Notes: generated by a model not told the origin, from the letters alone. A DNA stretch of 64,000 nt from Oscillospiraceae bacterium (GCA_963632935.1 CAVGWA010000001.1:20216-84215); one strand, 5' to 3'. Positions 851 through 29,339 are shown, counted from the first letter of the stretch. Program-made: numbers and translations.

Positions 851-946
851 TATGTGGAAATATGAAAAAAAATTACAATATCCTGTGAATATTAAGAAAA
901 AAGATTTAAATATGGCTAAATGTATTATGACACAATATGGTGGACC
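851..946 (+). other. cotJC: 5' segment of the interrupted spore coat gene cotJC (manganese-catalase family): MWKYEKKLQYPVNIKKKDLNMAKCIMTQYGGP. The frame then reads into phage DNA and stops at ~1003.
   Basis: Strong match to the conserved CotJC N-terminus (B. subtilis MWVYEKKLQYPVKV...EQYGGPDGELAA). The conserved sequence ends exactly at the att core. RBS GGGGG precedes the ATG at 851. Confidence 0.85.
935..945. repeat. attL core TATGGTGGACC, with putative crossover dinucleotide GG at 941-942.
   Basis: Identical 11-mer at 29329-29339. Phage-side flanks form an inverted repeat. Confidence 0.8.
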
Positions 947-1197
947 ACACACCAAAAAAGACATATATAAGGATAGAAAAAACTTTCTTTTTATACTTTC
1001 TTAAAAACTATGAAAAAAAATTTAATCAAAAGGAATATAATAAAGAATTTAACAAAAAACACTATAGGCAATTTAAAACTGAACTTCCAATTGCTGAAAA
1101 AGAAGAGATTGATAATTTTTTAAAGGAAATTAATATGAGTAAAGTTGAGTTTATTAGAAAAGCTTATGTCCTCTTAAAAACAGAATTCAAAAAATAA
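937..1197 (+). CDS. hypothetical small basic protein at the prophage left end, overlapping the attL core in another frame.
   Basis: ORF only. K/E-rich with no recognisable family. Followed by a strong hairpin terminator. Confidence 0.25.
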   Translation: MVDHTPKKTYIRIEKTFFLYFLKNYEKKFNQKEYNKEFNKKHYRQFKTELPIAEKEEIDNFLKEINMSKVEFIRKAYVLLKTEFKK

Positions 1198-1213
1198 AAA
1201 AGTAGCAAAATAA

Positions 1214-1250
1214 AAAAGGTAGTGATTTTTACACCACTACCTTTTTACTG
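1214..1250. terminator. bidirectional rho-independent terminator (GGTAGTGATTTTTACACCACTACC hairpin, A-run upstream and T-run downstream).
   Basis: Perfect 7-bp stem with flanking A/T runs, between convergent ORFs 937-1197(+) and 1271-2194(-). Confidence 0.6.
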
Positions 1251-1270
1251 TTCAATTTTTGAACGGAACA

Positions 1271-2194
1271 TTATTTCATTTGAATTGCGTCAATTTCTCT
1301 TCCATAGATCCCTGCATAACCATCATTTGTATTATCGGCTTTATGTATCCAAGGAAGCCATGAGCCACCTTTTGTATGTACTCTATAACTTACATAACCA
1401 TAGTCAGACCATATTTTAACGCCGTCAATAGTTTTGTTTATTATGCCACTATAAGAACTTCCATTGTTTGAGTTCTTTGCATATGTATCTGATTTAATTG
1501 TAGATAACCAAGAACCACCTTTTACATGCGTTAACATATAAATACAACCATTGACACATTTGGCTCTTATACCACCCATAGAATTGCCTAAATTACCAGC
1601 ATAACCATTATCATTAACAACTTCTGGTAACCAACATTTCTTGACATTATCATATGATTGGTAAGTAATATTTCCTGTGCAAGTTGGTTCAGAGTTTTTT
1701 GCAGAGTTTTCTGCAGAGTTGCCTAATTCTGCTCTAATCATATTTAAAAATCTATCCCAGCCCATATCTAAAGTACGATGTGGGCAATATTTTTTTGAAT
1801 AGTCTTGATGTTTTGTGACTTTATCAATACCCCAATCTCTTTCTTTTAAAAGTTGAGCAATTAGTTTTGCTGCGTTTTGTTCTGCTTTAATAAATCTATC
1901 TCCACCTGATTTAGAATAACAAATTTCAATAGATATACCTTCTTTATTACCTTTGCCGTTGCCATCACCTGCATTCCATGTGTTTCTATTAAATGGAATA
2001 CCTTGTACGGCTTCTTTATCATCAACAGCGATATGATAGGATACTTCATTATTGTTACTAATCATATATTTAATTTCATTATTAGCACTTGCGTCATTTG
2101 CAGTATTATGCACTACAATTCTTGTCGCATTCATACTATATGGACATTTATATTTATATTTACTATTATCTACTAACATTTGTCTTATTTCCAT
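1271..2194 (-). CDS. phage endolysin: N-acetylmuramoyl-L-alanine amidase (Amidase_2/PGRP-type) with C-terminal repeated GGSWL cell-wall-binding-like repeats.
   Basis: N-terminal RIVVHNTANDASA...YHIAVDD...GIPFNRNTWNAGDG motif block typical of amidase_2 lysins. Position is next to the holin at the prophage end. Confidence 0.8.
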   Translation of the reverse strand: MEIRQMLVDNSKYKYKCPYSMNATRIVVHNTANDASANNEIKYMISNNNEVSYHIAVDDKEAVQGIPFNRNTWNAGDGNGKGNKEGISIEICYSKSGGDRFIKAEQNAAKLIAQLLKERDWGIDKVTKHQDYSKKYCPHRTLDMGWDRFLNMIRAELGNSAENSAKNSEPTCTGNITYQSYDNVKKCWLPEVVNDNGYAGNLGNSMGGIRAKCVNGCIYMLTHVKGGSWLSTIKSDTYAKNSNNGSSYSGIINKTIDGVKIWSDYGYVSYRVHTKGGSWLPWIHKADNTNDGYAGIYGREIDAIQMK

Positions 2195-2195
2195 A

Positions 2196-2462
2196 TTATC
2201 CCTCTTTTCTTAATAAATTTTTAAGCATTTCATACATACCTGTAGATGCTAAACCACTTACCATGCCTGTTAATATTACATCTAAAGTTATGTTATGTAA
2301 ATTAGATACAACACTTAAGAATGTGCCTAAAACTAATACAATTAAGGGTATATATTTATTAAAGTCATTTGTATTAATTAAATTTTTAATAACATACCCA
2401 ACACATAAACAAATTCCTAAAATTACAACATTTACACTTTCGGTTAAAAAACTTAAATCCAT
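2196..2462 (-). CDS. phage holin (88 aa, predicted transmembrane segments, charged C-terminus).
   Basis: Small hydrophobic protein immediately upstream of the endolysin, with a 1-nt intergenic gap to the lysin. Confidence 0.7.
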   Translation of the reverse strand: MDLSFLTESVNVVILGICLCVGYVIKNLINTNDFNKYIPLIVLVLGTFLSVVSNLHNITLDVILTGMVSGLASTGMYEMLKNLLRKEG

Positions 2463-2463
2463 A

Positions 2464-2784
2464 TTATCTACCTTCTTTCATTAACTTATCCCACCAGTCA
2501 TGGATATAGCTATTACCACCTAGACTGGTATATCTTTCAAAACATTCATATGCTCTTTGTTTTTCAATAGCACTTAGCTCCTGCTTATTTTCTATGTCCT
2601 TCAAAAATCTCACTAAATAATTTTTACATTGAGATTTATCAACTTCTTTTAAATCTTCTCTAATAGGTTCAAAGAGCTTATTTATTTGTTTTTTGAGCAC
2701 ATTACATATATATGCGACTGAGCCAATTAATGCACTTAAAAAAGCCAAGACAGTTGCGATTTGACCTAATGTTATTGTTTCCAT
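2464..2784 (-). CDS. hypothetical protein with N-terminal TM helix (lysis-module accessory or second holin component).
   Basis: N-terminal hydrophobic segment IATVLAFLSALIGSVAYI. Translationally coupled to the holin. Confidence 0.35.
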   Translation of the reverse strand: METITLGQIATVLAFLSALIGSVAYICNVLKKQINKLFEPIREDLKEVDKSQCKNYLVRFLKDIENKQELSAIEKQRAYECFERYTSLGGNSYIHDWWDKLMKEGR

Positions 2785-2959
2785 GTTTTTCCTCTTTCTA
2801 CTTTTTAAAATTTACCTCCGAAGTTTGCCTGAATTTCATTAATTACAGTATCCAAAGATTTATATTTTCCTGTTTCATTATTTTGCAGTGCAATCTCGTT
2901 TGCATTTAGTTTATTACCTTTAAAAAAGTTTTTAAATAATTTCATTATTTTTTGTGCCA

Positions 2960-3394
2960 TCATGCTACTCTTAACCAAAAATAAACGGCGTAAAATTTAG
3001 GCATATTATTATGTGCTTTAGAATCACCTGAAGTCTGTGTCGAAGTGGTACCTTCTGGATTGGTCCCATTCGCAGCCATTACAATATCACCAACTGACCA
3101 CATACTTACTCCAGTTCTTCCTGAAATTTGATGTGAATGTGATGGCATTTCATCAACTGTTAATGTGTGTGTGTTTTCGCCACCTGTAGTTTTTACTGGA
3201 TAGGTTTCACTAGCACTCATTAAGAATGTTTCTTCTTCTATTTTTTGCCACGTCGTTCCCTTATATCTTGCGTTAGGGTCTATATTATTTGTTGTAGTTA
3301 ATATATCTCCTACCATATAAGGACATACTAAGAATTCCATTTCTTCGCCGTCTATTTTCTTTTTCCATAAAGTGCTTGCTACTTTCATTAACAA
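2960..3394 (-). CDS. phage tail-collar fibre domain protein (likely receptor-binding tip).
   Basis: GGENTHTLTVDEMPSHSH motif is characteristic of the Phage_tail_collar / MdpB domain. Confidence 0.6.
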   Translation of the reverse strand: MLMKVASTLWKKKIDGEEMEFLVCPYMVGDILTTTNNIDPNARYKGTTWQKIEEETFLMSASETYPVKTTGGENTHTLTVDEMPSHSHQISGRTGVSMWSVGDIVMAANGTNPEGTTSTQTSGDSKAHNNMPKFYAVYFWLRVA

Positions 3395-3493
3395 ACACCT
3401 CCTAGAAGAGAGTTACTTAATAGAACTCCCTCCTTTCTTGTATTGTTTGACATATATATATTATAAGTAATATTTTCAATAAATAGTTTCATG

Positions 3494-4147
3494 TTATTCC
3501 TCCTCCACTTCAATAATCGTTGTATCGAAGATTAGTTTATCATTTATTTCATCTATTTGATTTTGTAAATTACCAGCAACGTCTGTTGATAATTGCCCCT
3601 TAACATTATCAAACCACGTAGTAAACCAAATATTGTATTGCTTAAAAATATCTTCAGTAGATAAACTTTGCACTGCTTGCACAACGTTACCACACTCGTC
3701 AGTAAATCTAGTATCAGTTATCTTATCAGTTGTTATTCTCGTAGTTCCAGTTGAAACCGTAATGTTCGCAAGTCTTAAATCATAAATATTTCCACTTCTT
3801 GTTAGTATTGGCTGGCCTGGTGTCGTGGCTGTTTGTCCTTCTAAAATCATTGCAGTAATATTTCTATCACTTAGATTTAATCTCAATATAACCGAATCAA
3901 TTCTATTTAATTCTTTATCTGCCTCGTCTATATCTAAAGTAAGTGATTCTGTATTTTCATAACTATATCCATTAATATTAGCTGTTCCTGCCGCAACAGA
4001 AACAGTCATATTATCGTTTGCACTTACTTTTAAAGAATTATTAAATATTCCATTTGTAAAAAACTTTGATAAAAAATCAGCAACATCACTGGCATCATAA
4101 ACCCTATCATTGTTTACTGAATTAAAGAATCCATATTTTTGTGCCAT
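3494..4147 (-). CDS. hypothetical phage tail/baseplate protein.
   Basis: Position between the Tal-like protein and the tail collar protein. No motif recognised. Confidence 0.35.
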   Translation of the reverse strand: MAQKYGFFNSVNNDRVYDASDVADFLSKFFTNGIFNNSLKVSANDNMTVSVAAGTANINGYSYENTESLTLDIDEADKELNRIDSVILRLNLSDRNITAMILEGQTATTPGQPILTRSGNIYDLRLANITVSTGTTRITTDKITDTRFTDECGNVVQAVQSLSTEDIFKQYNIWFTTWFDNVKGQLSTDVAGNLQNQIDEINDKLIFDTTIIEVEEE

Positions 4148-4163
4148 TTATATCATTCCTTTC

Positions 4164-6161
4164 TTATTCGCCATCCCAAGCACTTGAAAAAGCACTTCCA
4201 AAGGTTGGCTTAACTGTTATATTCCCATCTTCTATTATTTCTTCAACTTCTATTATTCTATATGAGGTTAATATTCCCCATTTATCCTTTTTGATATTAA
4301 CAATATCTCCTAAGTCCCATTTATCTTTATAATCACCAATGTTTAATGCGGTTACTTCTAAGTTAAATGTTCCTGTGCTTAATTTTCCTTCTCCAACGGT
4401 TTTTAATTTTTCTATATATTCACTTGATGATAGATTATTATTACTTAAAGATTTTTGATCACAAAATAATTCATATAAATCAAATCCTGTTTTACCTTCA
4501 TCAACTGTAGTTGTTATTCTTGCTGTATCTTCTCCAGTTCCACCAACTAAAACATAATTAACACTTGTTTTCTTTGAAATAACAAGTTTTCCCTGCTCTA
4601 AATTATAATTATCATCACTGAAAGCATATTGTTCATTTTCAGTTTGATTAACTGTCCTATCTTTTCCCTTATATACTTCAAACATATAAACCTTTGAATC
4701 AACATTAGGTACAATTCTTATTCCAAGGCCAGAGTATTCACTGAGTTTAAGCAAATAATCGTAAACGTTTTTATATGTACACTGAAAAGAAATTGGTTCT
4801 GAACTCATTGTTACTGTTTCAGTCTCCCATGCGTCTGTCAGTGGAGTCATAGCATTGACTATTGTGTTCATACCTTCAATTGAATTGCCTGTAAAGTTTA
4901 TTTTATTTTTAACAATTCTTCTTTCGAATAAACATGACAGAAATCTACCACTTATGGTTACTTCTTCATCTGTACTATCATCACTAAATTCTATCGTTTC
5001 AATAATACCCGCCTCGGTATAATTATTTCTCATAACTAAAATATCAGTATCAATAAATTTCATTATATAATCAGTAACTGGCAATACTATTTCAAATTCA
5101 CCAGCCTCAAAATATTTTCTACGCCATCTTAGACTAATAAAATAATCAATAATTCCAAGCATATTAAGTTCTTTATCAAAAAAGAACAAGGATGAATCTT
5201 CATCACCATCAGTAGTAAGTTCACGGGATAGATTTAATATATAAATAGGTATTGTTCCAGTTTCTTTATAATGCTCTGCTGTTATTACCATTACATTCTT
5301 CTCATTATTATAGGCTAATCCATATCTAAGACCTGCTGTGCCATTATCAATGTCAGTCCATGATACACCATCTATTGATTGCAATATAGTACCATTGTAG
5401 CCACAAGCAATATACGTTCCATTTGCATATCTAGACCTAATCAAATATGCATCAGTTCCAGTTTCTTGCTTTGTCCAGTTTATACCATTTGTTGAGGTTA
5501 AAATTGTTCCGTTATCTCCAGTAATTACAAACTGACCTTTACCATATGTTATACCAACAAGTTTTACTGTTGTTTCTGATACTCTTCTTATCCAATTGTC
5601 AAGATCTGTAGATGTAAATATTGAACCAGTTTCTCCAACTCTTACATAAGTTCCGTTGTAAAAATCGATGTCCATTTGATTAAGATTTTCACTAGATTCA
5701 ACAATTAATTGATGTTTTGTCCAGCTTATACCATTTGTACTTTCGTAAAACCAGTCTTCAGTTTTAGTTCTTATTTTTTTTCCGTCTATCGTCTTATACC
5801 AATAAATACCAAGTAATGCTACAAATCTATTATTTATAAATTTGACACTATTACTAGAAATTCCAAAAGTTTCACCTGTATTTATCTTAATTGGCGTCCA
5901 ATTAACACCATCAGTAGATCGATAAAACCAAGTATCAGTACTTGTACTACTTTCACCTGTTATTATAAAAACACCATTGCCATATACAATATTGCTTGGT
6001 TTTAAATAATCTTCATTTAATTGATATTCAGTCCAATTTTCTAAGTTTTCTGATACACATACTTTTGCAGGGCTCTTTGATAATAAATAGTATTTCCCAT
6101 CAACGTATGCAATACCTCGACCACGACCTAATATACCACTATCTTTTTCTATTAATTTCAT
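4164..6161 (-). CDS. phage tail-associated protein (Tal/prophage-tail endopeptidase family position). The N-terminal half has repeated G..Y..G..G.I..S.DG..W (BNR/beta-propeller-like) units.
   Basis: 665 aa ORF directly after the Dit-like gene downstream of the tape measure. Internal ~45-aa repeats visible (GVNWTP, GISWTK, GINWTK, GVSWTD). Confidence 0.5.
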   Translation of the reverse strand: MKLIEKDSGILGRGRGIAYVDGKYYLLSKSPAKVCVSENLENWTEYQLNEDYLKPSNIVYGNGVFIITGESSTSTDTWFYRSTDGVNWTPIKINTGETFGISSNSVKFINNRFVALLGIYWYKTIDGKKIRTKTEDWFYESTNGISWTKHQLIVESSENLNQMDIDFYNGTYVRVGETGSIFTSTDLDNWIRRVSETTVKLVGITYGKGQFVITGDNGTILTSTNGINWTKQETGTDAYLIRSRYANGTYIACGYNGTILQSIDGVSWTDIDNGTAGLRYGLAYNNEKNVMVITAEHYKETGTIPIYILNLSRELTTDGDEDSSLFFFDKELNMLGIIDYFISLRWRRKYFEAGEFEIVLPVTDYIMKFIDTDILVMRNNYTEAGIIETIEFSDDSTDEEVTISGRFLSCLFERRIVKNKINFTGNSIEGMNTIVNAMTPLTDAWETETVTMSSEPISFQCTYKNVYDYLLKLSEYSGLGIRIVPNVDSKVYMFEVYKGKDRTVNQTENEQYAFSDDNYNLEQGKLVISKKTSVNYVLVGGTGEDTARITTTVDEGKTGFDLYELFCDQKSLSNNNLSSSEYIEKLKTVGEGKLSTGTFNLEVTALNIGDYKDKWDLGDIVNIKKDKWGILTSYRIIEVEEIIEDGNITVKPTFGSAFSSAWDGE

Positions 6162-6171
6162 CTAACCACCT

Positions 6172-7047
6172 CTATACTGCCTCATAATAGTTATAATAAC
6201 TAATAGTACAATCTAAGTTGGCTGAACCACTATCTGCATTTGTCACATATTTATTTACACCATTCGGTGCCTGTAAGAACTTTGTACCAAATACCAACGC
6301 ATTTGTTATATTACTTTCATTTCCATTAGAATCAATATGAGTAATAGTTTTTTCATTGTTATAGGTAGTAACAACTATTTGCTCGCCTAACTTTAAAGTA
6401 TAATTTAGTTTCATGATTTCATTAGTTCTGGTGTTTGTTAATGATGGATTTACTACTTCACCATTTGCTATAAATGTGATAGTCAAACCATACGATATAT
6501 GTGAATTATTTTCAATTTCAACTGTAGTAACATTATTTTGACTACCAAATTCAATACCAGAAACAGGTATTTCAAGTGGAAAACTAAATAATTTATCCCA
6601 ATTACTAAGTGTAGCTATTGTTTCTTTTGAATCCATAAAATAAGGACTTGGACATAATAAATTAATTGTTGCGTAAGTGTAATTGGCTTTTCTAGTTAAG
6701 GTTACCTTTTCAACGTAATAATTTATCTTTCTTTCTATATAGCCTTCATAATAATAGAGTGTACCTTTATCTTTTAATGGGAAAATATTATATATTTTTT
6801 GCTTATTTGTAATTAAGTTTTCCCCATCCTTAAATGCAATTACCAAACTAATACTTCGTTGATTAATCGATGTTCCTATATATGACACACCAGTACCGAA
6901 TGCACTTTTTATAGTAGCAACACTTCCCGCATATTCATGAATTCCAGAATATGAATCTAAAAAAAATGGAAATGAATAGTTAAATGATAATTTATATCCA
7001 TAACTGTTTTCACATATTATTTTTTTGGTTCTTGAATTATAAGCCAT
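6172..7047 (-). CDS. phage distal tail protein (Dit-like).
   Basis: 291 aa ORF immediately downstream of, and translationally coupled to, the tape measure gene. Canonical siphovirus order is TMP-Dit-Tal. Confidence 0.5.
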   Translation of the reverse strand: MAYNSRTKKIICENSYGYKLSFNYSFPFFLDSYSGIHEYAGSVATIKSAFGTGVSYIGTSINQRSISLVIAFKDGENLITNKQKIYNIFPLKDKGTLYYYEGYIERKINYYVEKVTLTRKANYTYATINLLCPSPYFMDSKETIATLSNWDKLFSFPLEIPVSGIEFGSQNNVTTVEIENNSHISYGLTITFIANGEVVNPSLTNTRTNEIMKLNYTLKLGEQIVVTTYNNEKTITHIDSNGNESNITNALVFGTKFLQAPNGVNKYVTNADSGSANLDCTISYYNYYEAV

Positions 7048-9353
7048 TATCTAGCACCCCCATATTTTAATTTATATAATTGATATTCTTGTCTAAGAAG
7101 TCTTACATTCTCAGCAGGTGATGTATATTTAGAGTAATTGTTGATAACTGGATTGAATTCAATGTTGTTTTTATTATCATTTGTATTGTTACTGTAACGT
7201 TCTAACATTAAGCTATTAGCATTAGGGTTAATCAATGGATTTAATGAGTTTTTTACACCATAATTGAGTGCTTTCATTGCTCCAGTAGTATTTTTCAATA
7301 TATCATCAAAAGATAATTTATTTGCCATATTTTGGGCCATCTTATCGGTTGCATTTTCTAATAAGTAACTTGATTGGTTAATTCCTTTAACCATACCTTT
7401 AACCATGTCAGGCATCCATGTTTCATAATCTCTTAGTGGTCCTATATCAGGTCTTGAAAAGTGTAAGAAATTTTTGATTTTGTCGGCAACACTCTTTGCT
7501 GCATCTCCAACTTTTCCTATCATATTTTTAATACCATCAATAAAGCCTTGAATCATGTCCTTACCCCAATCGAGAGCCATTTTAGGTAATTGACCCATCT
7601 TTTCTTTAATCGCACTAATAACTTTTAATATTCCAGTCCCAACTGCACTATTCATACTTATTATTCCAGATATTAAAGATCCAATTATCTTAATTCCAGC
7701 CTCAAATATTGTAGGTAAATTTGATTTGATTGCCGCAACTATTTTTAATACGATTGTTGGTATTGCCTCAACTATTTTAGCAAGTGAATCTGGAGCAGTT
7801 AATCCCTCTACTAAGCCCACAATAAGTTGTATTCCTGCATCAATTATTAAATCTATATTATCAATAATTGTATCTACAATATTCAATATGCAATCAACTA
7901 TTTGTGGTATTAATGTAGGTAACATTTCACCAAGTGAAATAGCTAATTGTGAAATAACTTGTATTAGTGTGTTTATTATAGTAGGAAGATTAGTTAATAA
8001 TAAATTAGCGATGTTTTGTATTAAATTTGTAATAAGTGGAATTAATTTAGGGAGCAACTCTGGAATCATCTTTATAATTTCATCTAGCATTTGGCTTATG
8101 ACAGGTATATATTTATCAGACATTTGAATCAAATGATTTGCAACATTAGTTGCAAAAGTTCCTAACTGTTTTAATAGATTATTCATTTCTTCACTAATGT
8201 CTTCTCCGCTTACCATCTTTTTAATCATGTCTTTTGCAGAATTCATTACTGGTGTTATACCTTCTAAAAGAGGTGTCATTATTTCTGCACCAACTCTTGA
8301 CAATGCACTTTTTAAATTAGCTAAAGATGACGTAAAGGTTTGTCCAGCATTCTGAGCAGCTCCTCCTAAACCTTGTTCCATTGCTTTTGAAAATTCTTCG
8401 AACCCTACTTTTCCAGCACTAACAAGTTTACTAACCTCGGATGTGCTAATTCCCATAGTTTCAGATAACATTTGTAAAATTGGTATGCCAGAATCAGATA
8501 ACTGATTTAATTCTTCCCCAGTAATTTTTCCGTTTGCAGCTATTTTATTAAATATAGAACCCATATCTTCCATAGAACGGCCTGACACTTGAGATGCGTC
8601 TGCTACAAGTTTTAAAGCACTTGTCATATCTTCTCCCTCTTTAATACCTGCAGCAAATAATCCACTTGCTACTGTAGCAGCACTATCCATAGAAAAAGCA
8701 GTGCCATCAACCGAGTCACTGACATTTTGCATTATTTCATCAAGCTGTTCTGTAGAATCAACAAATGTAGACATTTTAGCTTTAGCATTTTCCAAATTTA
8801 ATGCTCTATCAATACCACCAGAAATAACCATATTCCCTATTGAATTAGATATAGATTTAATTTTTCCTACTATGTTATCAAATACTCTAATAATTGCTTC
8901 ACTAGCAAGATTTGCTTTTATTAAATCTCCCACTTTGATAGCACTCTGACCCACTTTATCCATTTCATTAGTTATTGGTGTTAAATTGCCAGATTTGATA
9001 CTATCCAGTTCTTTATTCATCTTAACTAAATTACTTTGTGCCTTAGCAATTTCAATTGATAAATTAGTATACTGTTGTTTCTGCTCTTCTGTTAAATTAG
9101 AATACTCTCCTAATTGTGATTGAGCAGTTTTTAGCTGTTTTAATCTTTCAACGGTAGCACCTATGTTTGCAGTTAATAATTTTTGTTTGGTTGCTAATGT
9201 ATCAGTATTTGTAGGGTCTAATTTCAATGCTCTATTCAACTCCCAAAGCCCTGAGTTGGTTGAATAAACTACTTGATTAACATTTTTTAATGATTCTTCT
9301 AATTTAGATGTATTACCACCAATGTCTATAGTAATACCTTTTAAACTCGCCAT
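7047..9353 (-). CDS. phage tail tape measure protein (768 aa).
   Basis: Long alpha-helical/low-complexity protein with coiled-coil N-terminus and repeated IP..I segments. Lies between the major tail protein and Dit. Confidence 0.8.
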   Translation of the reverse strand: MASLKGITIDIGGNTSKLEESLKNVNQVVYSTNSGLWELNRALKLDPTNTDTLATKQKLLTANIGATVERLKQLKTAQSQLGEYSNLTEEQKQQYTNLSIEIAKAQSNLVKMNKELDSIKSGNLTPITNEMDKVGQSAIKVGDLIKANLASEAIIRVFDNIVGKIKSISNSIGNMVISGGIDRALNLENAKAKMSTFVDSTEQLDEIMQNVSDSVDGTAFSMDSAATVASGLFAAGIKEGEDMTSALKLVADASQVSGRSMEDMGSIFNKIAANGKITGEELNQLSDSGIPILQMLSETMGISTSEVSKLVSAGKVGFEEFSKAMEQGLGGAAQNAGQTFTSSLANLKSALSRVGAEIMTPLLEGITPVMNSAKDMIKKMVSGEDISEEMNNLLKQLGTFATNVANHLIQMSDKYIPVISQMLDEIIKMIPELLPKLIPLITNLIQNIANLLLTNLPTIINTLIQVISQLAISLGEMLPTLIPQIVDCILNIVDTIIDNIDLIIDAGIQLIVGLVEGLTAPDSLAKIVEAIPTIVLKIVAAIKSNLPTIFEAGIKIIGSLISGIISMNSAVGTGILKVISAIKEKMGQLPKMALDWGKDMIQGFIDGIKNMIGKVGDAAKSVADKIKNFLHFSRPDIGPLRDYETWMPDMVKGMVKGINQSSYLLENATDKMAQNMANKLSFDDILKNTTGAMKALNYGVKNSLNPLINPNANSLMLERYSNNTNDNKNNIEFNPVINNYSKYTSPAENVRLLRQEYQLYKLKYGGAR

Positions 9354-18972: not shown

Positions 18973-19650
18973 TTAATTCCGTAATTTTTTAGGTTTTTGA
19001 TGACCGATGAAGATAGCCTCACGATCTGCCTCTGCATCATCAATTCCCCAGTGCACGTAACGCATCGTGTAGTTGTAATCATCGTGATTATACATCTTCA
19101 TAAGTGTTTCAGGTTTACCACCATGAAGAATATACATATAGCCAAATGTTTTACGCAGACTATGTAATCCAAACTTAAAATCCATATTCACTGCATTTCC
19201 AGCTTTTTGAATAACTCTGCGTGCTTGTTGCTGAGTTATTGGAAGTATTACATTAGTTGTCTTTCCTTTGTACGTATTTATCGTTTTTTGTCCCATAAAT
19301 AGATAATCATTTGGCTTTAAATCAAACTCCTTGATATATTTAAGTACTTCATCGTGAAACTGCTTATTCATTCTGAAATTCTGCATCTTACCAGTTTTTA
19401 ACTCCTTAATTGATACATAACCTTTTTCTAATTGAAACACCTTTAATTGAAGCAAATTTTCAGCTCTAAACGCAGTATTGAATCCAATTAAACAGATCAT
19501 ATAATTACGATATGCTTGATAATACTTAATTTTTGACTTGGCATGCTCAACTTTAGACCACAGATTATCCATTAAAGCCTGCAGCTGTTTCTCGTCTTTA
19601 ATTGGTAAGGTTTCCTGTTGTCCTCCAAACAAAGCTATTCTTCTACCCAT
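18973..19650 (-). CDS. small tyrosine recombinase (225 aa, catalytic domain only, FimB/FimE-sized) with its own AGGAGG RBS.
   Basis: Conserved R (TAFRAENL), HSLRKTFG (H-x-x-R) and a C-terminal Y (TMRYVHW). GC content is visibly higher than that of flanking phage DNA. Confidence 0.7.
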   Translation of the reverse strand: MGRRIALFGGQQETLPIKDEKQLQALMDNLWSKVEHAKSKIKYYQAYRNYMICLIGFNTAFRAENLLQLKVFQLEKGYVSIKELKTGKMQNFRMNKQFHDEVLKYIKEFDLKPNDYLFMGQKTINTYKGKTTNVILPITQQQARRVIQKAGNAVNMDFKFGLHSLRKTFGYMYILHGGKPETLMKMYNHDDYNYTMRYVHWGIDDAEADREAIFIGHQKPKKLRN

Positions 19651-19685: not shown

Positions 19686-20133
19686 TTATTGTGATACTTG
19701 TTCATTACTTTTCTTTCCCATCTTCATCAATAACTCATGCCTAAATTTTATTTGATTATTTCTATATACTCTCTTTCCACAATGGCTACAATATGCAAAT
19801 TCTAATTTGTTAGGCACAAATACAGTATGACTACATTCACATACGTGTCTTATTTTATATAATTCATTAAATCTCTTTTTTTCTTGAAGAGCCTTCGCCA
19901 TAGCCATCGCCAGAGCCATCGCCAAAGCCTGAGCCAGAGCCATCGCCATAGCCAGAGCCATCGCCAAAGCCAGAGCCAGAACCATCGCCAAAGCCTGAGC
20001 CATCGCCAAAGCCTGAGCCATCGCCATAGCCAGAGCCATCGCCAGAGCCATAGCCAAAGCCAGAGCCAGTATCTTTTTCTTTTATGTATTTATCAGTTAA
20101 TTGTGTTGCTTTTATATATTCTATTTTTCCCAC
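19686..20133 (-). CDS. frameshifted (or two-frame) gene. The N-terminal part carries GSGFGDGSGYGD repeats, ending at 19867. A C-x-C...C-x2-C zinc-ribbon tail follows in the +1 frame (to 19686). The frames meet at an A7 tract.
   Basis: GC-rich tandem repeat (gccagagccatcgccaaagcc) open in all frames. Homopolymer AGAAAAAAAGAG sits at the frame switch. Zn-ribbon motif HVCECSH...CSHCGKR lies downstream. Confidence 0.4.
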
Positions 20134-20991: not shown

Positions 20992-20992
20992 A

Positions 20993-21412: not shown

Positions 21413-21414
21413 AA

Positions 21415-21831: not shown

Positions 21832-22155
21832 CTCCTAATTCTTTTGATAATTTTTCTAACTCTCTAATTAAAATTGGCTTATAATGTGATTTTGACATAT
21901 CCTTTTCTCCCTTTTTTATTTTTTCGACTAATTCTTGATTATTCATATTAACCACCTACATAATTACCTTTATCATCATGCGTTATTTCAATTATTTTAG
22001 GAACAATGTTATAAACTTCATCTTCTTTAATTCCGTTAATAACATTGCATATATAATCAGTTGTTTCTACTAAATATTCAGATACATCTTTGATACAACC
22101 TATAAAATCACATTTATTGCTTTTCTTATTGATACAGCATACATTTCCTCTATAA

Positions 22156-22464: not shown

Positions 22465-22599
22465 AAATTACTATGTTTTTCAAAATATTCATAGTTAGTA
22501 GTACAATTATGATCTATTGAGCACATACATATTTCAAAGAGAAAAAAGTAAAAAAATAAAATTCCTAGAATAAACACAAACATCATAACTTTTTTCATT

Positions 22600-22899
22600 T
22601 TAACCTTCTTCCAATTGCCCAAAATTTTTTATATATTCATCAACTGAAGCTATTTCAATCATTAAATTTTTAACATATTCCTCAGAAACGACTTCAATTT
22701 TATTTAAATCTTTAAAGTAAACATTCTCACATTTTCCAACAAAATTTAAGTATGTTCCTTTTTTTGTTTTATAAATCTTTGCGTTAAAATATTGATCAAT
22801 TATTCCAAAAAAAGTTGAAACAGGAATTTTCTGTTGATATTCTAAAATCACATCACACTTATCAGTATCATAAATTTTGTTTTCTATAATTTTTTTCAT
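22600..22899 (-). CDS. hypothetical phage protein.
   Basis: ORF only. Confidence 0.25.
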   Translation of the reverse strand: MKKIIENKIYDTDKCDVILEYQQKIPVSTFFGIIDQYFNAKIYKTKKGTYLNFVGKCENVYFKDLNKIEVVSEEYVKNLMIEIASVDEYIKNFGQLEEG

Positions 22900-23143
22900 T
22901 TTTTCTCCTTAAGTCATTTAATTGTTTAGTTAAGCCTTCAATTTTGCTGGCGTTTTGGCGTCTTTGCATCTCTTTTATTTTTAGCTTGTATTGTAATTCT
23001 TTGTTTTGTTTGTTAATCAAAATTATTGCATCATTTAAACTATCAAATGCTTTTTTGATTTCAAAAAATTTCTTTTGGATTTTTCCAAATTCATTTTCAA
23101 AATATATTAAATCTTTATATTTTTTATTGCTTATTATTTTCAC
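22868..23143 (-). CDS. hypothetical coiled-coil phage protein.
   Basis: ORF only. Confidence 0.25.
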   Translation of the reverse strand: MKIISNKKYKDLIYFENEFGKIQKKFFEIKKAFDSLNDAIILINKQNKELQYKLKIKEMQRRQNASKIEGLTKQLNDLRRKNEKNYRKQNL

Positions 23144-23156
23144 TTTATTCCCCTTT

Positions 23157-23441
23157 TCATTCTTTAATTTTAAAATAATTATTTACTAAATTAAGATCAG
23201 TCGAATTGATAATTTTATTTTGGCCTTGAAATTTGATGCTAAAACTTTCACCATTCTTGCTATATATTTCAAATTTTTTTACTTTATTTTTCTTATCAAT
23301 CACTTTTGTTCTAGTTACCATTGCAAAGTGCCAAAACTTTCGTTGACTAATAAAATATCCAATATCTTGTCTCCACTGTTTTTGATTAAAATCAATGATA
23401 TTTTTTTTAGCAATCCATGAACGATTATATTTTCTAGCCAT
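23157..23441 (-). CDS. hypothetical phage protein.
   Basis: ORF only. Confidence 0.25.
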   Translation of the reverse strand: MARKYNRSWIAKKNIIDFNQKQWRQDIGYFISQRKFWHFAMVTRTKVIDKKNKVKKFEIYSKNGESFSIKFQGQNKIINSTDLNLVNNYFKIKE

Positions 23442-24177
23442 AGTTACATCTCCGTTCTAAATCTTTTATTTCTTCAAAAGTTGCTTTATCTTCTGCTATT
23501 TCTTTTCCATACCAATCAGGGCCATTTTCATTTTGTTTATATTTGTTTTTTTCTAACATACATTCCTTTAATGTTTTGTAACCTTTATCATGCCATGAAT
23601 TAATAATGGTAGTTGTATAATTTAAACCTCTAGCTCCATTAAGTAATGTCTTTTCAACAGCATAATTAATCACATCATCATCAAACCATTCTTTCCAATT
23701 CATCAGTGTTTGATATTCAACAGGAGATAATGTTCTACCAAATTGTTCTTCACAGTAGCTGAAGCAATTTTTTTCTTCTTTAGTAGTTTCTTCTTTTATA
23801 TCCTTATCCTTATCTTTATCCTTATCCTTATCCTTTTCCTTATCCTTATCGGGTTTTTTTAGGTTATTAGGTTTTAAATAGGTTTCTTCTTTAGGTTTTT
23901 GTTTTTTAGGTCTACCACCCTTTTTACCATTTAATTTAGAGGTTTCTGACCTTTTGTCATAATTTTCTTTATCTCTTTTTAGGTTTCTTTTTATGAATGA
24001 AAAAGCCATTTTTGTAATACCGTTTAATTCTTCATCTTCAAAACCTAATTTTTCATATTTAAACATTGCTCTAACCAATTTACCTAATTCTTCATTTGAT
24101 AAATCTTCTAACAATTCTTCATAGTCATAGTACATCAAAAATGATTTTTTGCTTTCTGTTTCTTCTTTTATCATCAC
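23434..24177 (-). CDS. DnaD-domain replication protein (phage replisome organiser) with internal (KD)n low-complexity linker.
   Basis: C-terminal FGRTLSPVEYQTLMNWKEWFDDDVINYAVEKTLLNGARGLNYTTTIINSWHDKGYKTLKE matches the DnaD C-terminal domain pattern. Position at the head of the early operon. Confidence 0.6.
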   Translation of the reverse strand: MMIKEETESKKSFLMYYDYEELLEDLSNEELGKLVRAMFKYEKLGFEDEELNGITKMAFSFIKRNLKRDKENYDKRSETSKLNGKKGGRPKKQKPKEETYLKPNNLKKPDKDKEKDKDKDKDKDKDIKEETTKEEKNCFSYCEEQFGRTLSPVEYQTLMNWKEWFDDDVINYAVEKTLLNGARGLNYTTTIINSWHDKGYKTLKECMLEKNKYKQNENGPDWYGKEIAEDKATFEEIKDLERRCNYG

Positions 24178-24200
24178 TCATAATCACCCTTCTTTTATTC

Positions 24201-24425
24201 TTATATTTTGTTAATTTCGTAAGTAAAATAATCAGTAATTTCTATCACAAAACAAAGTGAAATTATAAAAGTAAATAATCCACACCATGTCCAGCCAAGT
24301 ACCTTACTATTAAACCAAGGCATTATAAGAAGCACATATAAATCATGTAATATGATAATAGTACTTACTATTAAAACAATTAATAATGCTATGTTATTCC
24401 ATTTTATTTTTCTTCTCTTCTTCAT
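24201..24425 (-). CDS. small membrane protein (2 TM).
   Basis: Hydrophobic ORF. Confidence 0.3.
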   Translation of the reverse strand: MKKRRKIKWNNIALLIVLIVSTIIILHDLYVLLIMPWFNSKVLGWTWCGLFTFIISLCFVIEITDYFTYEINKI

Positions 24426-24672
24426 AATTTCACCTCTAATTTGAATAATATTTTATTTTTAACATATTAGATATGTCTATAAGAGCCTTTTTGTCCTGCT
24501 CTTCAGTTAATTTATTTGTAACAATTATTTTTAATTTTTTTTGTTTTGGTAGTTTTTTATTTTTCATTTGATCACCCCATTAAAGTTTATGAATTTAGAT
24601 ATTCCAGTATCTAAAATTATTTATAGTTATCACCAACATGCTATAATGTAGATATAGATTGGAGGTGAATTT

Positions 24673-24882
24673 ATGTATAAGGTATATTTTAAAGACATAA
24701 ACAATGAACTATGTTTATTAAACAACGAAACTGATTTTATCGATGGTATTCTGCCTAACGATTTTGTGAATAAGTTGACAGATAATAAACTTAATTTCCA
24801 AAATGACTTTATCAGAATTCAATATCAAGGAAATAAGTATATAATCAGTATTAGTAATTTAATAATTTATTTAGAAGATTAG
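24673..24882 (+). CDS. hypothetical small protein.
   Basis: ORF with RBS GGAGGTGAATTTATG. Confidence 0.3.
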   Translation: MYKVYFKDINNELCLLNNETDFIDGILPNDFVNKLTDNKLNFQNDFIRIQYQGNKYIISISNLIIYLED

Positions 24883-24887
24883 TTAGA

Positions 24888-25166
24888 TTAATCTTTTAAT
24901 TTATACCATTGTTTAGTTGCATCACTAATTTCCAAATAGATTTCACTTTGGATTCGAATTAAAGAATCTTCATAATTACGTTCAACAACATTAACAAGTC
25001 TTTTAAATGTAGAATAATCAATCTTATTTTCTTGAATGTATTTTATAAAGTTTCCAAGAGCATCACTAAAATTATCAGTTTTATTTACTTTTCTACATTT
25101 ATCAGCAATCTGTTCTGGGCTTAAATATTTGTCATTATCATTTACATAAACTTTCATCTTCCCCAC
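24888..25166 (-). CDS. hypothetical phage protein.
   Basis: RBS GGAGGTGGGGAAGATG. Immediately downstream of the Cro-like gene. Confidence 0.3.
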   Translation of the reverse strand: MGKMKVYVNDNDKYLSPEQIADKCRKVNKTDNFSDALGNFIKYIQENKIDYSTFKRLVNVVERNYEDSLIRIQSEIYLEISDATKQWYKLKD

Positions 25167-25169
25167 CTC

Positions 25170-25418
25170 CTATTCTTCTTTATTTTCAACATTATTTTTG
25201 TGAATATATTCGCAAATATTTCTAAAAAAAATATCTGATGGAACATTATATTTTTCAAGAAAAGAATATAACTTTCCAATTTTTAAAATTTCAGGGTTGT
25301 TCTCATAAACACTTAATGTATTTTTATGAATACCAAGTATTTCAGCAGCACTTTCTAACGTCAATTCCTTACGTAATCTAATTAATTTTAATTCTCTGCC
25401 TATTTGTTCAACAAACAT
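25170..25418 (-). CDS. XRE-family HTH protein, Cro-like (same orientation as lytic genes).
   Basis: HTH_XRE motif LTLESAAEILGIHKNTLSVYEN. 82 aa. Divergent from the CI-like gene. Confidence 0.6.
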   Translation of the reverse strand: MFVEQIGRELKLIRLRKELTLESAAEILGIHKNTLSVYENNPEILKIGKLYSFLEKYNVPSDIFFRNICEYIHKNNVENKEE

Positions 25419-25557
25419 TTTCTACCTCCTATCTAGCATCATTATATGCGAATATATTCTCAAAGTCAATTGTTTTTGTGAAAAAATTCGCAGATTTGTT
25501 GATTTTTACATTTTTTTGCGATAGAATTAGTGTGAATAAATGTTGAGGAGGAAAAGA

Positions 25558-25956
25558 ATGGCAAACTATTTTGTAAAAAATTTAAAATATATTAGAAACC
25601 AAAAAAAAATATCCCAGCAAGAATTAGCTGATAAAATAGGGGTTGACCGTTCTACTATTGGATACTGGGAAAATGGTAAGGCAGACCCAACTTTATTAAA
25701 TGTTCAAAAACTATCTGATGCATTAAATATTAATATGATAAAGTTAGTTGGAACTGATTTATCTTTAGAAGAAAATCAAACAAATGAAAAAAAACAATTC
25801 TCCGAAGAAGAAAAAAAAGAGGCTTTAAAACAAGTGTTAAAAGATAAAGGCTTTTTTAATGAGAATGAAGAAATATCCAAAGATGATGTTGATAAATTAA
25901 TCGACTTTGCTAAAAGAAATAAAGATTATATTATAGATAAGAAAGAAGAAAAGTAA
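25558..25956 (+). CDS. XRE-family HTH repressor, CI-like. Start at MANYF with GAGGAGG RBS; the ORF-track start at 25540 is upstream in frame.
   Basis: ISQQELADKIGVDRSTIGYWENGKADP HTH. Divergently arranged from the Cro-like gene, heading the plus-strand lysogeny operon. Confidence 0.6.
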   Translation: MANYFVKNLKYIRNQKKISQQELADKIGVDRSTIGYWENGKADPTLLNVQKLSDALNINMIKLVGTDLSLEENQTNEKKQFSEEEKKEALKQVLKDKGFFNENEEISKDDVDKLIDFAKRNKDYIIDKKEEK

Positions 25957-25961
25957 AGTAT

Positions 25962-26633
25962 ATGAAAAGATTCGAATATGAAAACAAAATATTAAAATGG
26001 AAACCATGGGTACACATTGTATTAGGCATCTACACTTGTTTTTTATGGTTCATTGTTTTATTAATCATTTACTTTGATTATAATAATTCAAATAAAGAAT
26101 CAGCAAAAAAGGCAATTAATTCTAACACTGAAAATTATGACAACAAAAAGGAACCTATTATATCAGTACATTTTAAAGTTGCAGGTGTAACATTTGAAAA
26201 TAGACAAAAAATAATAAAACAAATTGTAAATGAAAATAAAAATACAATATTTCACAAACCGTATTATGGAATGACAAATAAAGAAATAATTGATAATGGA
26301 AATGAAATTTACGAAATAAATAATCTGAGTGTTAATTCTTTAAGATTAGAACCTACAACCTTCAAAAATGAAGATGCAATCGAAGTTTATATAAGTGATA
26401 ATGAAGAAAAAGAATATATGGTAGGATATGTTCCAGAACATAAAATTAAAGAAGTTCAAAAATTTTTAATAATGTACAATGAACACCCTAACTATCAATT
26501 AAAATCTGATGCATATTTTACTGGTGGTAAATACAAAGTTGGAGAATTTAATGATTGTAGCAAAGAAGTTATTAAAACATATAAAAACAATTATGGAATC
26601 AATATCAAGTTAGAATTATATGAGCAAAAATAA
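25962..26633 (+). CDS. membrane-anchored HIRAN-domain protein (lysogeny-module cargo).
   Basis: N-terminal TM helix. VAGVTFENRQ...LRLEPTTFKNEDAIEVY...YMVGYVPE fits the HIRAN pattern (hydrophobic-GY/R, EP.N..D..AI.V, IGY.P). Confidence 0.4.
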   Translation: MKRFEYENKILKWKPWVHIVLGIYTCFLWFIVLLIIYFDYNNSNKESAKKAINSNTENYDNKKEPIISVHFKVAGVTFENRQKIIKQIVNENKNTIFHKPYYGMTNKEIIDNGNEIYEINNLSVNSLRLEPTTFKNEDAIEVYISDNEEKEYMVGYVPEHKIKEVQKFLIMYNEHPNYQLKSDAYFTGGKYKVGEFNDCSKEVIKTYKNNYGINIKLELYEQK

Positions 26634-26744
26634 AAAAGAGTTAAAAACTTAATCAATATCTAACAAATAAATTATTGATTTTGTAAAAAAAATAAAGATT
26701 ATATTATAGATAAGAAAAATACCACAAAATAAGGAGTATGATGT

Positions 26745-27272
26745 ATGAATAATAAAATTGATATTGCCTGTAATAGGTACAAACTTATAAAAAATAGTTT
26801 ACACCCTAAATTTTGTACTATTGATGAATGGTTAGACAAAGAAAGTAAAATTTTTGAGAGTGAATTATCCTCCAAACCAAGAACTTATAAAAAATTAAAA
26901 AGAGGTCAGATTATCAAAGTGGACTTTGGTATAAATATTGGTTCTGAATTATGTTATACTCATTTTGCAATAGTTTTAAATAAAAATGATAGCATTTACA
27001 GTGATAATGTAACTGTAATACCAATTACCTCAAAAAGGGGAAATAATAGAATTGCACTTGGGAAAATATTGCATAATGTATATCCAAATTCATTAAAATA
27101 TAATTTGAATTGTTATGCCAACGTAACACAAATAAAATCAATTAGCAAATCCAGAATATTTCAAAATAATAAAAATTACGTTTGTATTAACGATATACTA
27201 GATAAAATAGATAATGCAATTTTAACAACATTTACTAATGTTAATAAAAATAAAACAAAAATAGGTGTATAA
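26745..27272 (+). CDS. PemK/MazF-like fold protein (putative toxin/abortive-infection cargo) with ~50-aa N-terminal extension. No adjacent antitoxin evident.
   Basis: RGQIIKVDFGINIGSE...HFAIVL...NVTVIPITSK parallels the MazF/PemK signature (GD.V.VDF.P..GSE...RPA.VLS...v.v.PiTs). Confidence 0.4.
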   Translation: MNNKIDIACNRYKLIKNSLHPKFCTIDEWLDKESKIFESELSSKPRTYKKLKRGQIIKVDFGINIGSELCYTHFAIVLNKNDSIYSDNVTVIPITSKRGNNRIALGKILHNVYPNSLKYNLNCYANVTQIKSISKSRIFQNNKNYVCINDILDKIDNAILTTFTNVNKNKTKIGV

Positions 27273-27799
27273 AAATTTGACTTTAGAATAAAAATATGGT
27301 ATAAGTAAAGTAATCATTTAATTGATTATATTTAGTCCTTAACGGACACCTCAGTTTCTTTTGAAACTGTACTTGGCTTTTTACAAGCACTTAAGATACC
27401 ATATTTGGTATCTTTTATTTTATATAAACACATATAAAATTCTAAAAAAAGAAATTTACTAAACATTAATAATCAATGTCTAGTAAATAAATCAAAACTA
27501 TATAAAGTTCAATATTTAATCGATAGCTTTGTAATAGTTTATAAAAATCATCAAATTTCATAAAAACCTCCTAACGGAGAAAATATTATAATGTAAATTT
27601 AAAGATAATTAAAAACTCTCTAGCTGGAACTAGAGAGCAAATGAAAAATTTAAGCCACCAACTTAGCAAAAATAGGATTGAAATCAATACTATAATTGCA
27701 TACTATAACATACGATGCATATAAAATACAATACATATGCTACAATACAATTTTTCTATATAATTGTATCATAAATTTATTAATAAAGGAAGTGCTATA

Positions 27800-29308
27800 A
27801 TGAAAAAACAAATAATATCTGAATTTATTGATTGGTTAAAAAAAGAAAACTTATCTATAACCAATTTAAATGCAAAAAATACAATTGCTATTTATATTAG
27901 AGTATCAACTAACAAGCAAGAAGAATTAAGCCCATTAAGCCAATTAAAAGAGATATATAAATATGCTGTAAGAAATAATTATCAAATTGATATAAATCAA
28001 ATTTATGTAGAAGAGGAAGGTATAAGTGGTAAACATGCTGAAAAACGTAATGAATTTCAAAGTATGATTGCACACGCTAAATCTAAAGAAAAAGAATTTG
28101 ATACTATTGTTGTGTGGAAATTTTCAAGATTTGCAAGAAACCAAGAAGAAAGTATTGTTTATAAGAATATGCTTAAGAAAAACAATGTTAACGTTGTAAG
28201 TGTATCAGAACCTATCATAGATGGTCCTTTTGGCAGCCTGATAGAGCGAATTATCGAGTGGATGGATGAATACTACTTAATACGTCTTTCAGGTGAAGTT
28301 ACACGTGGAATGACCGAAGCAGCCAATCAAGGTCGTGTTCTTAGTACAGCACCGTTTGGATATCGTAATGAAAATAAAAAATATATAATTCATGAAGAAG
28401 AGGCGAAAATAGTTAAATGGATTTTTGAAACTTTTGTAGATGGAAAAATGAGCCAAATTGAAATGGCTAGACATATTAATAATCTAGGATTTAAAACCAA
28501 AAGGGGAAGTAAGTTTGAAAATAGAACTATTTCATACATTTTATTAAATCCGACGTATACTGGTAAAATACGATGGACGCCTAATGGAAAACTCACAAGA
28601 GAAGAACTATATAATAATACTAAATCAATTATAACAAAGGGAACACACGAGGCAATTATTAGTGAAGAATTATTTAAAAAGGCAAATGAAAGACTAAAAG
28701 AAAACAGGAAGTTCATGCACTCACATGAACATCACACAAAAATATGGCACTGGATGAAAGGTTTAATAAGATGTGAGTGTGGAAGGACATTTGTTAGAAC
28801 CAGTGGAAAATTACGCTGTAATGGGTATAATAAAGGTACTTGTACAGCATCTGATAGAATAGACTATAATGAAGTAGAATGCCTTGTTTTGGAACAATTA
28901 AAAAGAGATAGCACGCATAAAATAGCAATTGAAAATATAGTACAATCAAAAAAAGAGTCTAAAAAGACAAATGATCTAGAATATGAGGCACTTAAAAATT
29001 TAGAAAAAAAAGAAGAAAGAATAAAGGAAGCTTATCTTAATGGAATAGATTCATTAACTGAATATAAATATAATAAACAAAAGATACAAAAGGAACGAGA
29101 AATATTATTACAAAAAATAGAAGAAAATACAGAAAAAAAAGAAGATATTTCTATTGAAGAAAAGATAAGTGAAAACTTAAAAACCATCTACGAAACGCTT
29201 ACTGATGATAATGTAGATATAAAAAAGAAGTATGATATTGCCCATAGATATATAAACGTAATTACTTATAAAAGCGGCGTTTTATACATGAAATATAACG
29301 ATTTTTAG
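27800..29308 (+). CDS. large serine recombinase (prophage integrase, SpoIVCA/SprA-like class). Probable start at MKKQII (27800); the ORF is open from 27764.
   Basis: N-terminal resolvase domain AIYIRVSTNKQEE...S with catalytic Ser. Recombinase and zinc-ribbon regions and C-terminal coiled coil. Ends 20 bp from the attR core. Confidence 0.9.
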   Translation: MKKQIISEFIDWLKKENLSITNLNAKNTIAIYIRVSTNKQEELSPLSQLKEIYKYAVRNNYQIDINQIYVEEEGISGKHAEKRNEFQSMIAHAKSKEKEFDTIVVWKFSRFARNQEESIVYKNMLKKNNVNVVSVSEPIIDGPFGSLIERIIEWMDEYYLIRLSGEVTRGMTEAANQGRVLSTAPFGYRNENKKYIIHEEEAKIVKWIFETFVDGKMSQIEMARHINNLGFKTKRGSKFENRTISYILLNPTYTGKIRWTPNGKLTREELYNNTKSIITKGTHEAIISEELFKKANERLKENRKFMHSHEHHTKIWHWMKGLIRCECGRTFVRTSGKLRCNGYNKGTCTASDRIDYNEVECLVLEQLKRDSTHKIAIENIVQSKKESKKTNDLEYEALKNLEKKEERIKEAYLNGIDSLTEYKYNKQKIQKEREILLQKIEENTEKKEDISIEEKISENLKTIYETLTDDNVDIKKKYDIAHRYINVITYKSGVLYMKYNDF

Positions 29309-29328
29309 GGTTTTTGTCCTTTTTGGTG

Positions 29329-29339
29329 TATGGTGGACC
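29329..29339. repeat. attR core TATGGTGGACC, with putative crossover GG at 29335-29336.
   Basis: Identical to 935-945. The cotJC reading frame resumes through it. Confidence 0.8.

Follow-up and report, generated by a model that had tools for sequence, protein, structure and literature searches.

The stretch of DNA examined here (64,000 nucleotides from an Oscillospiraceae bacterium, GCA_963632935.1 CAVGWA010000001.1:20216-84215; hereafter the window) contains a prophage of 28.4 kb that is located within the host spore-coat gene cotJC. The comparisons described below argue strongly that this prophage split cotJC by means of its own large serine integrase, at attachment (att) sites as they had been reconstructed in an earlier note on the same DNA. 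The case is well supported but is an ordinary example of a known integration system.

The split cotJC gene and its attachment sites

The host gene fragments, the integrase gene and the att sites are arranged as follows.

342-842, + strand: cotJB, the host gene immediately 5' of the split gene (Pfam CotJB, 3.7e-25)
852-946, + strand: cotJC 5' fragment, codons 1-31 and the first two bases of codon 32, with the core at its end
918-967, + strand: attL, consisting of the B arm (host, 918-941), GG (942-943) and the P' arm (phage, 944-967)
936-946, + strand: left copy of the core, TATGGTGGACC
942-943, + strand: inferred crossover dinucleotide GG, bases 1-2 of the Gly31 codon (based on dyad centre, variants and family pattern)
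944-29334, mostly - strand: prophage body, integrated unit of 28,393 bp
27800-29308, + strand: large serine recombinase (integrase), 502 amino acids (aa), ATG at 27800, stop codon at 29306-29308
29311-29360, + strand: attR, consisting of the P arm (phage, 29311-29334), GG (29335-29336) and the B' arm (host, 29337-29360)
29329-29339, + strand: right copy of the core, TATGGTGGACC
29340-29802, + strand: cotJC 3' fragment (joined-frame analysis and comparison with the uninterrupted locus)

The 11-bp core is found exactly twice in the 64-kb window, both times on the + strand. No exact match occurred in 100 dinucleotide-preserving shuffles, i.e. none is expected by chance, and the identity between the flanks of the two copies breaks at precisely 11 bp on the left as well as on the right. 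Identical 11-bp cores at both junctions had been reported in the earlier note; both exact copies are present, with the left one at 936-946 instead of 935-945. Removal of the DNA between the core copies restores the cotJC reading frame: 852-946 fused to 29340-29802 is an open frame of 185 aa that matches the Pfam family Mn_catalase (CotJC family, 2.9e-54). In this frame, the core reads TAT GGT GGA CC and covers Tyr29, Gly30, Gly31 and Pro32. The central GG (942-943 and 29335-29336) corresponds to bases 1-2 of the Gly31 codon, and the bacterial site attB overlies the QYGGP codons of cotJC.

Species-representative genomes were scanned with the joined CotJC protein, which yielded 361 relatives. 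The gene was matched as one continuous stretch in all of the best 80 of 361 loci that were kept. The hosts are uncultured gut Bacilli, and the relatives are recorded under names such as Candidatus Coprosoma and Firmicutes bacterium CAG:822. In one contig (L001, CAVKUP010000005.1), the product of the unbroken gene is 100% identical to the joined CotJC protein, and the DNA aligns to the window minus 947-29339 with 99.5% identity over 4,406 bp, crossing the predicted junction without a break. The site in this contig reads ACACAATATGGTGGACCGGCTGGTG. The attB that had been predicted from the two junctions therefore exists as a real empty site, from which it differs by one synonymous C/G single nucleotide polymorphism immediately right of the core.

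The phage site attP is obtained by splicing 29311-29339 to 947-967, which gives TTTTTGGTGTATGG-TGGA-CCACACACCAAAAA with arms matching at 13/14 positions, as originally described. Recast around GG, the same dyad reads TTTTTGGTGTATGGT-GG-ACCACACACCAAAAA with 14/15 matching positions, and the symmetry extends to 20/24 positions per arm, fading past about -20. This is far beyond chance. A symmetry of 14/15 is reached by one of ~64,000 natural centres in the window and by 2e-5 of random two-piece joins, with 11 centres tried per join. The site starts 2 bp past the integrase stop codon and is an imperfect palindrome with a symmetry of ~42-50 bp and a half-site consensus of approximately TGTCC(C/T)TTTTGGTGTATGGT. 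At the 50-bp scale, attP corresponds to 29311-29336 plus 944-967 (junction sequence TTTTTGGTGTATGGTGGACCACACACCAAAAAA) and attB to 918-943 plus 29337-29360 (junction sequence ACACAATATGGTGGACCCGCTGGTG). The att sequences were read directly, and the limits of their arms were set by the reach of the attP symmetry. The innermost GGT-GG-ACC of attB is common with attP; identity to the P arm is 8/25 and 5/25, and the 11-bp core is the only shared part. Published minimal sites of large serine recombinases measure 34-44 bp for attB and 39-52 bp for attP (PMC5499854). The 24-bp attB and 32-bp attP proposed in the earlier note for an in vitro test are probably too short, because they fall below any measured minimal site of this enzyme class (PMC5499854).

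The integrase is assigned to the large serine recombinases by three Pfam domains that all pass their cut-offs, namely Resolvase (1e-26), Recombinase (4.7e-22) and Zn_ribbon_recom (2.1e-6). Across 26 aligned homologues, the residues Y32, R34, V35, S36, T37 and Q40, including the catalytic R34-V35-S36, are invariant, as are the zinc-ribbon cysteines C325, C327, C340 and C348. A profile of the integrase family was compared with solved structures and matched SprA of phage SPbeta (9dxh, 3.9e-34; positions 172-495) and the integrase of Listeria phage A118 (4kis, 5.5e-20; positions 182-499). The match spans the region where a coiled-coil motif would be expected within the zinc-ribbon domain, and the sequence there is rich in K, E and heptad-like repeats. 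The typical att geometry of this enzyme class had been recognized from the dyad; it is borne out by the three domains, the empty attB and the free attP of related phages.

Relatives of the prophage were found in integrated as well as in free form. The free forms stem from metagenomes, encode integrases that are 93%, 64% and 50% identical to the one studied here, and share the order integrase, intact palindromic attP, lysis genes. The integrase groups are listed below with their percentage of integrase identity.

P0001, 93%, integrated (L161, L163-L166, L168-L170): ...GGAGTATGGTGGACC followed by GGCTGGTGAGC (3' part of cotJC)
P0001, 93%, free (L162, L167): integrase, then attP, a small open reading frame (ORF) and lysis genes
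P0003, 67% (L171, L172): P' arm more diverged, 15/27 over a longer arm of 27 bp; the site is probably also an attP
P0004, 64%, free (L173, L174): palindromic attP, then lysis genes
P0007, 60%, integrated (L175-L182): in cotJC of a different host
P0028, 53%, integrated (L183): in cotJC, with a Bro-N gene between integrase and attR
P0037, 50%, integrated (L185, L187, L188): in cotJC of other hosts
P0037, 50%, free (L186): attP arms symmetric at 20/20 positions

In L162, the homologue of window positions 27458-29339 (91% identity) passes directly into the homologue of 936-1007, with the 11-bp core as the exact overlap of the two alignments. An unaligned gap of ~210 bp follows, after which the match continues with 1007-2819 (90%). 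Similarly, the homologue of 27458-29339 is joined to that of 936-2819 in L167, again with a core overlap of 11 bp. The circular attP junction that had been predicted for the excised phage is thus present in free-phage contigs of its relatives. All 20 lysogen loci that were fetched (20/20, several hosts) have the integrase gene 5' of the cotJC 3' fragment and in the same orientation. A single insertion orientation is expected, because GG is not self-complementary (GG vs CC). Across six attP sites of the clade, seven half-site columns vary between phages while the arms stay symmetric; such co-variation is expected if identical protein subunits read both arms.

Searches for the same sequences elsewhere were negative within their scope. 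The reconstructed attP region (1.3 kb) has no DNA match among GenBank phages, the best integrase protein match among these phages being 43% identical. Exact attP and P'-arm patterns had no matches in IMG/VR. Exact-protein look-ups found neither the truncated CotJC' nor the endolysin on record, and a CotJB probe for attL-side host flanks in viral contigs found none.

The non-coding stretch upstream of the integrase gene is ~530 bp long, and its integrase-proximal 200 bp (27607-27800) are conserved in L161, L162, L171, L173, L175 and L185, also at integrase identities of 50-67%. The conserved part comprises a hairpin whose sequence varies and the invariant TGAAAAA that follows it, together with two TATAAT-like boxes and a ribosome-binding site. 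One piece of 42 bp shares 97.6% identity with L173. The region is possibly involved in integrase regulation. CATA-type motifs are present upstream of the integrase but are uninformative at ~25% G+C, and no sigma-E or sigma-K promoter could be reliably called there.

Position of the crossover and alternative explanations

As attP and attB are identical over 11 bp, the crossover cannot be located from one lysogen, and GG was chosen on the grounds of symmetry and family comparison. Each of the six attP sites of the clade has GG at its dyad axis. Within the 50% group, the attP of L186 reads TATGGTGG-A-CC, and the attR sites read TATGGTGG-G-CC (L185, L187) and TATGGTGG-T-CC (L188). The base to the right of GG is host-derived, because it varies among these attR sites relative to the attP of the same integrase. 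This rules out the ACC part of the core and puts the exchange at GG or to the left of it.

More distant serine integrases (43-48% identical) were taken from IMG/VR. At 13 such loci, attP dyads with 15-18/20 matching positions (L120: 14/20) are centred on GGT-NN-ACC, NN being TG, CA or CC. In one subfamily, attP, attL and attR share only the 4 bp GTCA, ending at the dyad-central CA:

L189, attP: ...AAAAAGGT-CA-ACCTTTT...
L190, attL: ...CACTGCGT-CA-ACCTTTT...
L110, L112, L116, attR: ...AAAAAGGT-CA-TCCAGT...

The distant loci (L107, L108, L118, L120, L129, L130, L139, L141, L151, L152, L160 and L189-L193) carry the attP palindrome directly 3' of the integrase gene, and the subfamily with the GTCA core integrates into an unidentified host gene.

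On the host side, the GG is kept in 69/69 parsed cotJC homologues and both adjoining wobble bases vary; hosts with GGA, GGC or GGG at Gly30 are among them. As GG is invariant while the wobbles are not, the matching pair of phage and host sits on positions fixed by the protein. A first scan of Joint Genome Institute metagenomes with the P' arm, aimed at attL junctions in hosts with variant Gly codons, returned nothing, and a second one returned three unrelated chance matches.

The explanation that survives best besides integration at GG retains the site and the enzyme but places the crossover elsewhere in the core, for instance at the TG or GT left of GG. The stretch of attP/attB identity leaves room for this. 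Its length is 11 bp in the present sites, 8 bp in those of the L185/L186 group and 4 bp (GTCA) for the distant subfamily, and neighbouring dinucleotides within TATGGTGG are inseparable by sequence. However, the axis falls on GG in the six clade sites and on NN of GGT-NN-ACC in the 13 distant loci, the attP/attR variants exclude the ACC side, and the cut made by characterized serine integrases falls in the middle of the attP inverted repeat (PMC5595907, PMC5499854, PMC3783163). An off-centre crossover is therefore given a small chance. The claim of the earlier note that the prophage ends are known to single-nucleotide resolution stands if the inferred crossover at GG is accepted; otherwise, the ends are ambiguous across the 11-bp identity, with the left limit unpinned.

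A second recombinase-like gene has to be considered as the source of the integrase activity. The ORF at 18973-19650 (- strand) encodes a protein of 224 aa that comprises a tyrosine-recombinase catalytic domain only (Pfam Phage_integrase, 1.2e-18; PHROG annotation 'integrase'). It sits mid-prophage, with the replication module on one side and packaging on the other. If it were the integrase, the 11-bp repeat would be the overlap region, and 11 bp of identity is indeed long compared with many serine integrases. Yet the protein has only 224 aa and is encoded mid-genome, ~10 kb from either end, whereas every relative has its serine integrase right next to the att site, whose sequence varies together with the enzyme. 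The 4-bp core of the related subfamily is too short for the overlap of a tyrosine integrase, and attP is a simple palindrome of 2 x 20-24 bp, as in SPbeta (PMC5499854). Integration by the tyrosine-recombinase-like protein is very unlikely.

Direct repeats around an insertion are likewise left by transposition, so that a transposase might have created the 11-bp repeat by duplicating its target site, or the repeat might have arisen by chance, with the palindrome an artefact of splicing. In contrast to what a duplication implies, the donor form has one core inside the palindrome (L162, L167, L173, L186). Since donor and empty site each carry one core, the recombination was conservative. Chance is excluded by the shuffles and the join statistics, and no transposase was found among the prophage ORFs scanned with Pfam and PHROG, which leaves next to no weight for this explanation. 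The same holds for a dyad that serves mainly as transcription terminator of the integrase gene and not as a protein-binding site: it is a strong inverted repeat 2 bp past the stop codon, but neither strand has a U-tail, because a T-run comes before the stem and an A-run after it whichever strand is read, and the hairpin is split in the lysogen and has the recombination core at its centre. Even when the four alternatives are added together, they remain improbable.

Integration by the serine integrase at GG would proceed as follows. A temperate siphovirus-like phage would have entered cotJC by conservative site-specific recombination, catalysed by the enzyme encoded at 27800-29308. An integrase dimer is expected to bind the two attP half-sites, and attP and attB are probably both cut at the dyad-central GG with a 2-base stagger, as in characterized serine integrases. 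The cut half-sites would then rotate and rejoin to attL (B-GG-P', 918-967) and attR (P-GG-B', 29311-29360). As GG is not its own reverse complement, religation should be possible in a single orientation. Excision would be the reverse reaction, restoring the 185-aa cotJC and releasing a circle of 28,393 bp with the palindromic attP, and presumably requires a directionality factor of the phage.

Several points weigh against integration as described here, the most general being that the whole case rests on sequence analysis. The phage of the window itself was not found in free form, and the attP evidence comes from relatives with integrase identities of at most 93%. The half-sites of attB are weakly symmetric (9/25). 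In the A118 model, the recognition motif of the zinc ribbon lies ~5 bp nearer the centre in attB than in attP (PMC3783163). This shift is not convincingly evident in the attB studied here: the outer P-arm motif GTCC(C/T) is located at -19 to -15, and its best counterparts in attB, chosen by eye, match at 3/5 positions with a 6-bp shift. The left limit of exchange is not pinned, as any dinucleotide in TATGGTGG gives the same products. No directionality factor was found; PHROG and Pfam scans of the prophage ORFs gave no match to an excisionase or recombination directionality factor family, and a comparison of the concatenated small prophage ORFs with the PDB gave no match to SprB-containing chains, the matches obtained falling on artificial linkers. 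This null result is not counted as absence, because recombination directionality factors are too diverse.

Comparison with known systems

The closest parallel is SPbeta, an active prophage whose integrase SprA recombines attP with an attB in the sporulation gene spsM (PMC5499854, PMC4191935). In both cases, the prophage splits a sporulation-related gene and excision restores the reading frame, and SprA is the closest solved structure by profile. The shared core measures 16 bp in SPbeta and 11 bp here. The minimal attP of SPbeta has 52 bp, with arms of 25 bp and three mismatches, compared to a symmetric region of ~42-50 bp and 20/24 positions per arm in the present site; its minimal attB has 44 bp and little symmetry, and the attB in cotJC is likewise of little symmetry. 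The central dinucleotide is AA in SPbeta and GG here, both being non-palindromic. Differences are the target, which is cotJC and not spsM, the core and half-site sequences, the much smaller size of the phage (28.4 kb), and the fact that no SprB-like directionality factor was recognized among the prophage ORFs.

The integrase of Listeria phage A118 (LI integrase; PMC3783163, PMC3556126) resembles the present enzyme by profile in the recombinase and zinc-ribbon region, and its attP likewise consists of two half-sites about a central dinucleotide; the site sequences, in contrast, are unrelated. With phiC31, Bxb1 and other tool integrases, the enzyme shares its class and the logic of its sites, in which the central 2 bp set the polarity, but sequence similarity is only distant and the att sequences differ.

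Sporulation genes are also interrupted by elements with SpoIVCA-like recombinases, such as skin in sigK, vfbin in spoVFB and gin in gerE (PMC5595907; 10.1101/2022.02.25.481979; 10.1101/2021.11.22.469490). A skin-like element is described in cotJC of Laceyella sacchari (bioRxiv 10.1101/2022.02.25.481979), and a preprint with reference to Abe 2013 (bioRxiv 10.1101/2021.11.22.469490) mentions the gene as one that such elements target. As with skin- and SPbeta-type elements, the insertion lies within the coding part of a sporulation gene, and precise removal of the prophage restores cotJC. Unlike skin-like elements, it looks like a complete phage, has relatives in free form and belongs to a host lineage of uncultured gut Bacilli. 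As cotJC is already listed as a target, the prophage is a new instance of a known phenomenon.

Accordingly, the general understanding of serine integrases is unchanged, and one more case is added of phages occupying sporulation genes. The comparisons provide exact attP, attB, attL and attR sequences for an uncharacterized serine integrase of uncultured gut Bacilli, and related phages are seen to land repeatedly on the conserved QYGGP codons of cotJC. Such data are of use for the accurate delimitation of prophages and as an integrase/att pair for the recombinase toolbox. A further, rather doubtful idea is that a whole clade of phages of uncultured gut Bacilli with small genomes (integrase identity down to ~50%) has the same two glycine codons of cotJC as its target and might, by analogy with SPbeta and spsM, double as a set of mother-cell switches that rebuild the gene during development. 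On this view, the clade would also offer, ready to use, a collection of related integrases that have GGT-NN-ACC cores and differ in the specificity of their arms.

Prophage content and chromosomal context

Pfam and PHROG scans of the ORFs identify a full siphovirus-type gene set. The lysis, tail, head, packaging, replication and cro genes are encoded on the - strand; cI, a toxin gene and the integrase gene are found on the + strand at the right end.

937-1197, + strand: small lysine-rich ORF just inside attL (62 aa in frame from 1009), weak match to phrog_13890
1271-2194, - strand: endolysin (Pfam Amidase_2, PHROG amidase), the first large gene past attL
Lysis genes: holin, amidase
Tail genes: fibre, Dit, tape measure, major tail protein
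Head and packaging genes: connectors, capsid, protease, portal, TerL, small terminase-like protein, HNH
Replication genes: SSB, NinB, DnaD-like loader
Lysogeny control: divergent Cro-like and CI-like helix-turn-helix regulators
Toxin: PemK/MazF-like

At the place of the small ORF next to attL, a 67-aa gene is called in L162, where the DNA is ~90% identical to 1007-2819. The only in-frame ATG 5' of codon 43 of the ORF (937) falls within the 11-bp core. For this reason, the start context differs between prophage and free phage.

Between the CI-like repressor and the integrase (25962-27272), the cargo varies among the close relatives L161-L170. In the window, this segment encodes an uncharacterized 223-aa protein and the PemK/MazF-like toxin, while the relatives carry an RNase_T or RNase_T-BRCT protein, with the toxin present or not. 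PADLOC gave no defence-system match for the proteins of the toxin region.

A G+C-rich tandem repeat of ~180 bp (GCCATAGCCAGAGCC-like; periods 18, 24 and 42) is located at 19888-20069 and gives the ORF at 19686-20057 an artificial 'LAMALAMA...' N-terminus. Its real product is probably a small zinc-ribbon protein of the type CxC...CxxC. Another repeat, TATCCT x 8.7 (23799-23850), lies within the DnaD-like gene and may represent origin iterons.

The window includes the chromosomal origin region, because dnaA, dnaN, recF, gyrB and gyrA are found in that order at 54395-63221 (- strand). The prophage is located ~33 kb from dnaA. Just downstream of gyrA and adjoining the gene of the signal recognition particle (SRP) RNA, seven copies of TGTTTCACGTGAAAC(A/G) are clustered at 53210-54392, with none expected by chance. 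This segment of 1.2 kb is free of any ORF of >=60 aa and is itself a tandem duplication of ~600 bp. The motif agrees with TGTTNCACGTGAAACA, the parS consensus of B. subtilis, and the cluster looks like an origin-proximal parS (centromere) array. The small SRP RNA is encoded at 53043-53136 (- strand), and a T-box leader (41467-41654) lies immediately 5' of the methionyl-tRNA synthetase gene (41661-43250).

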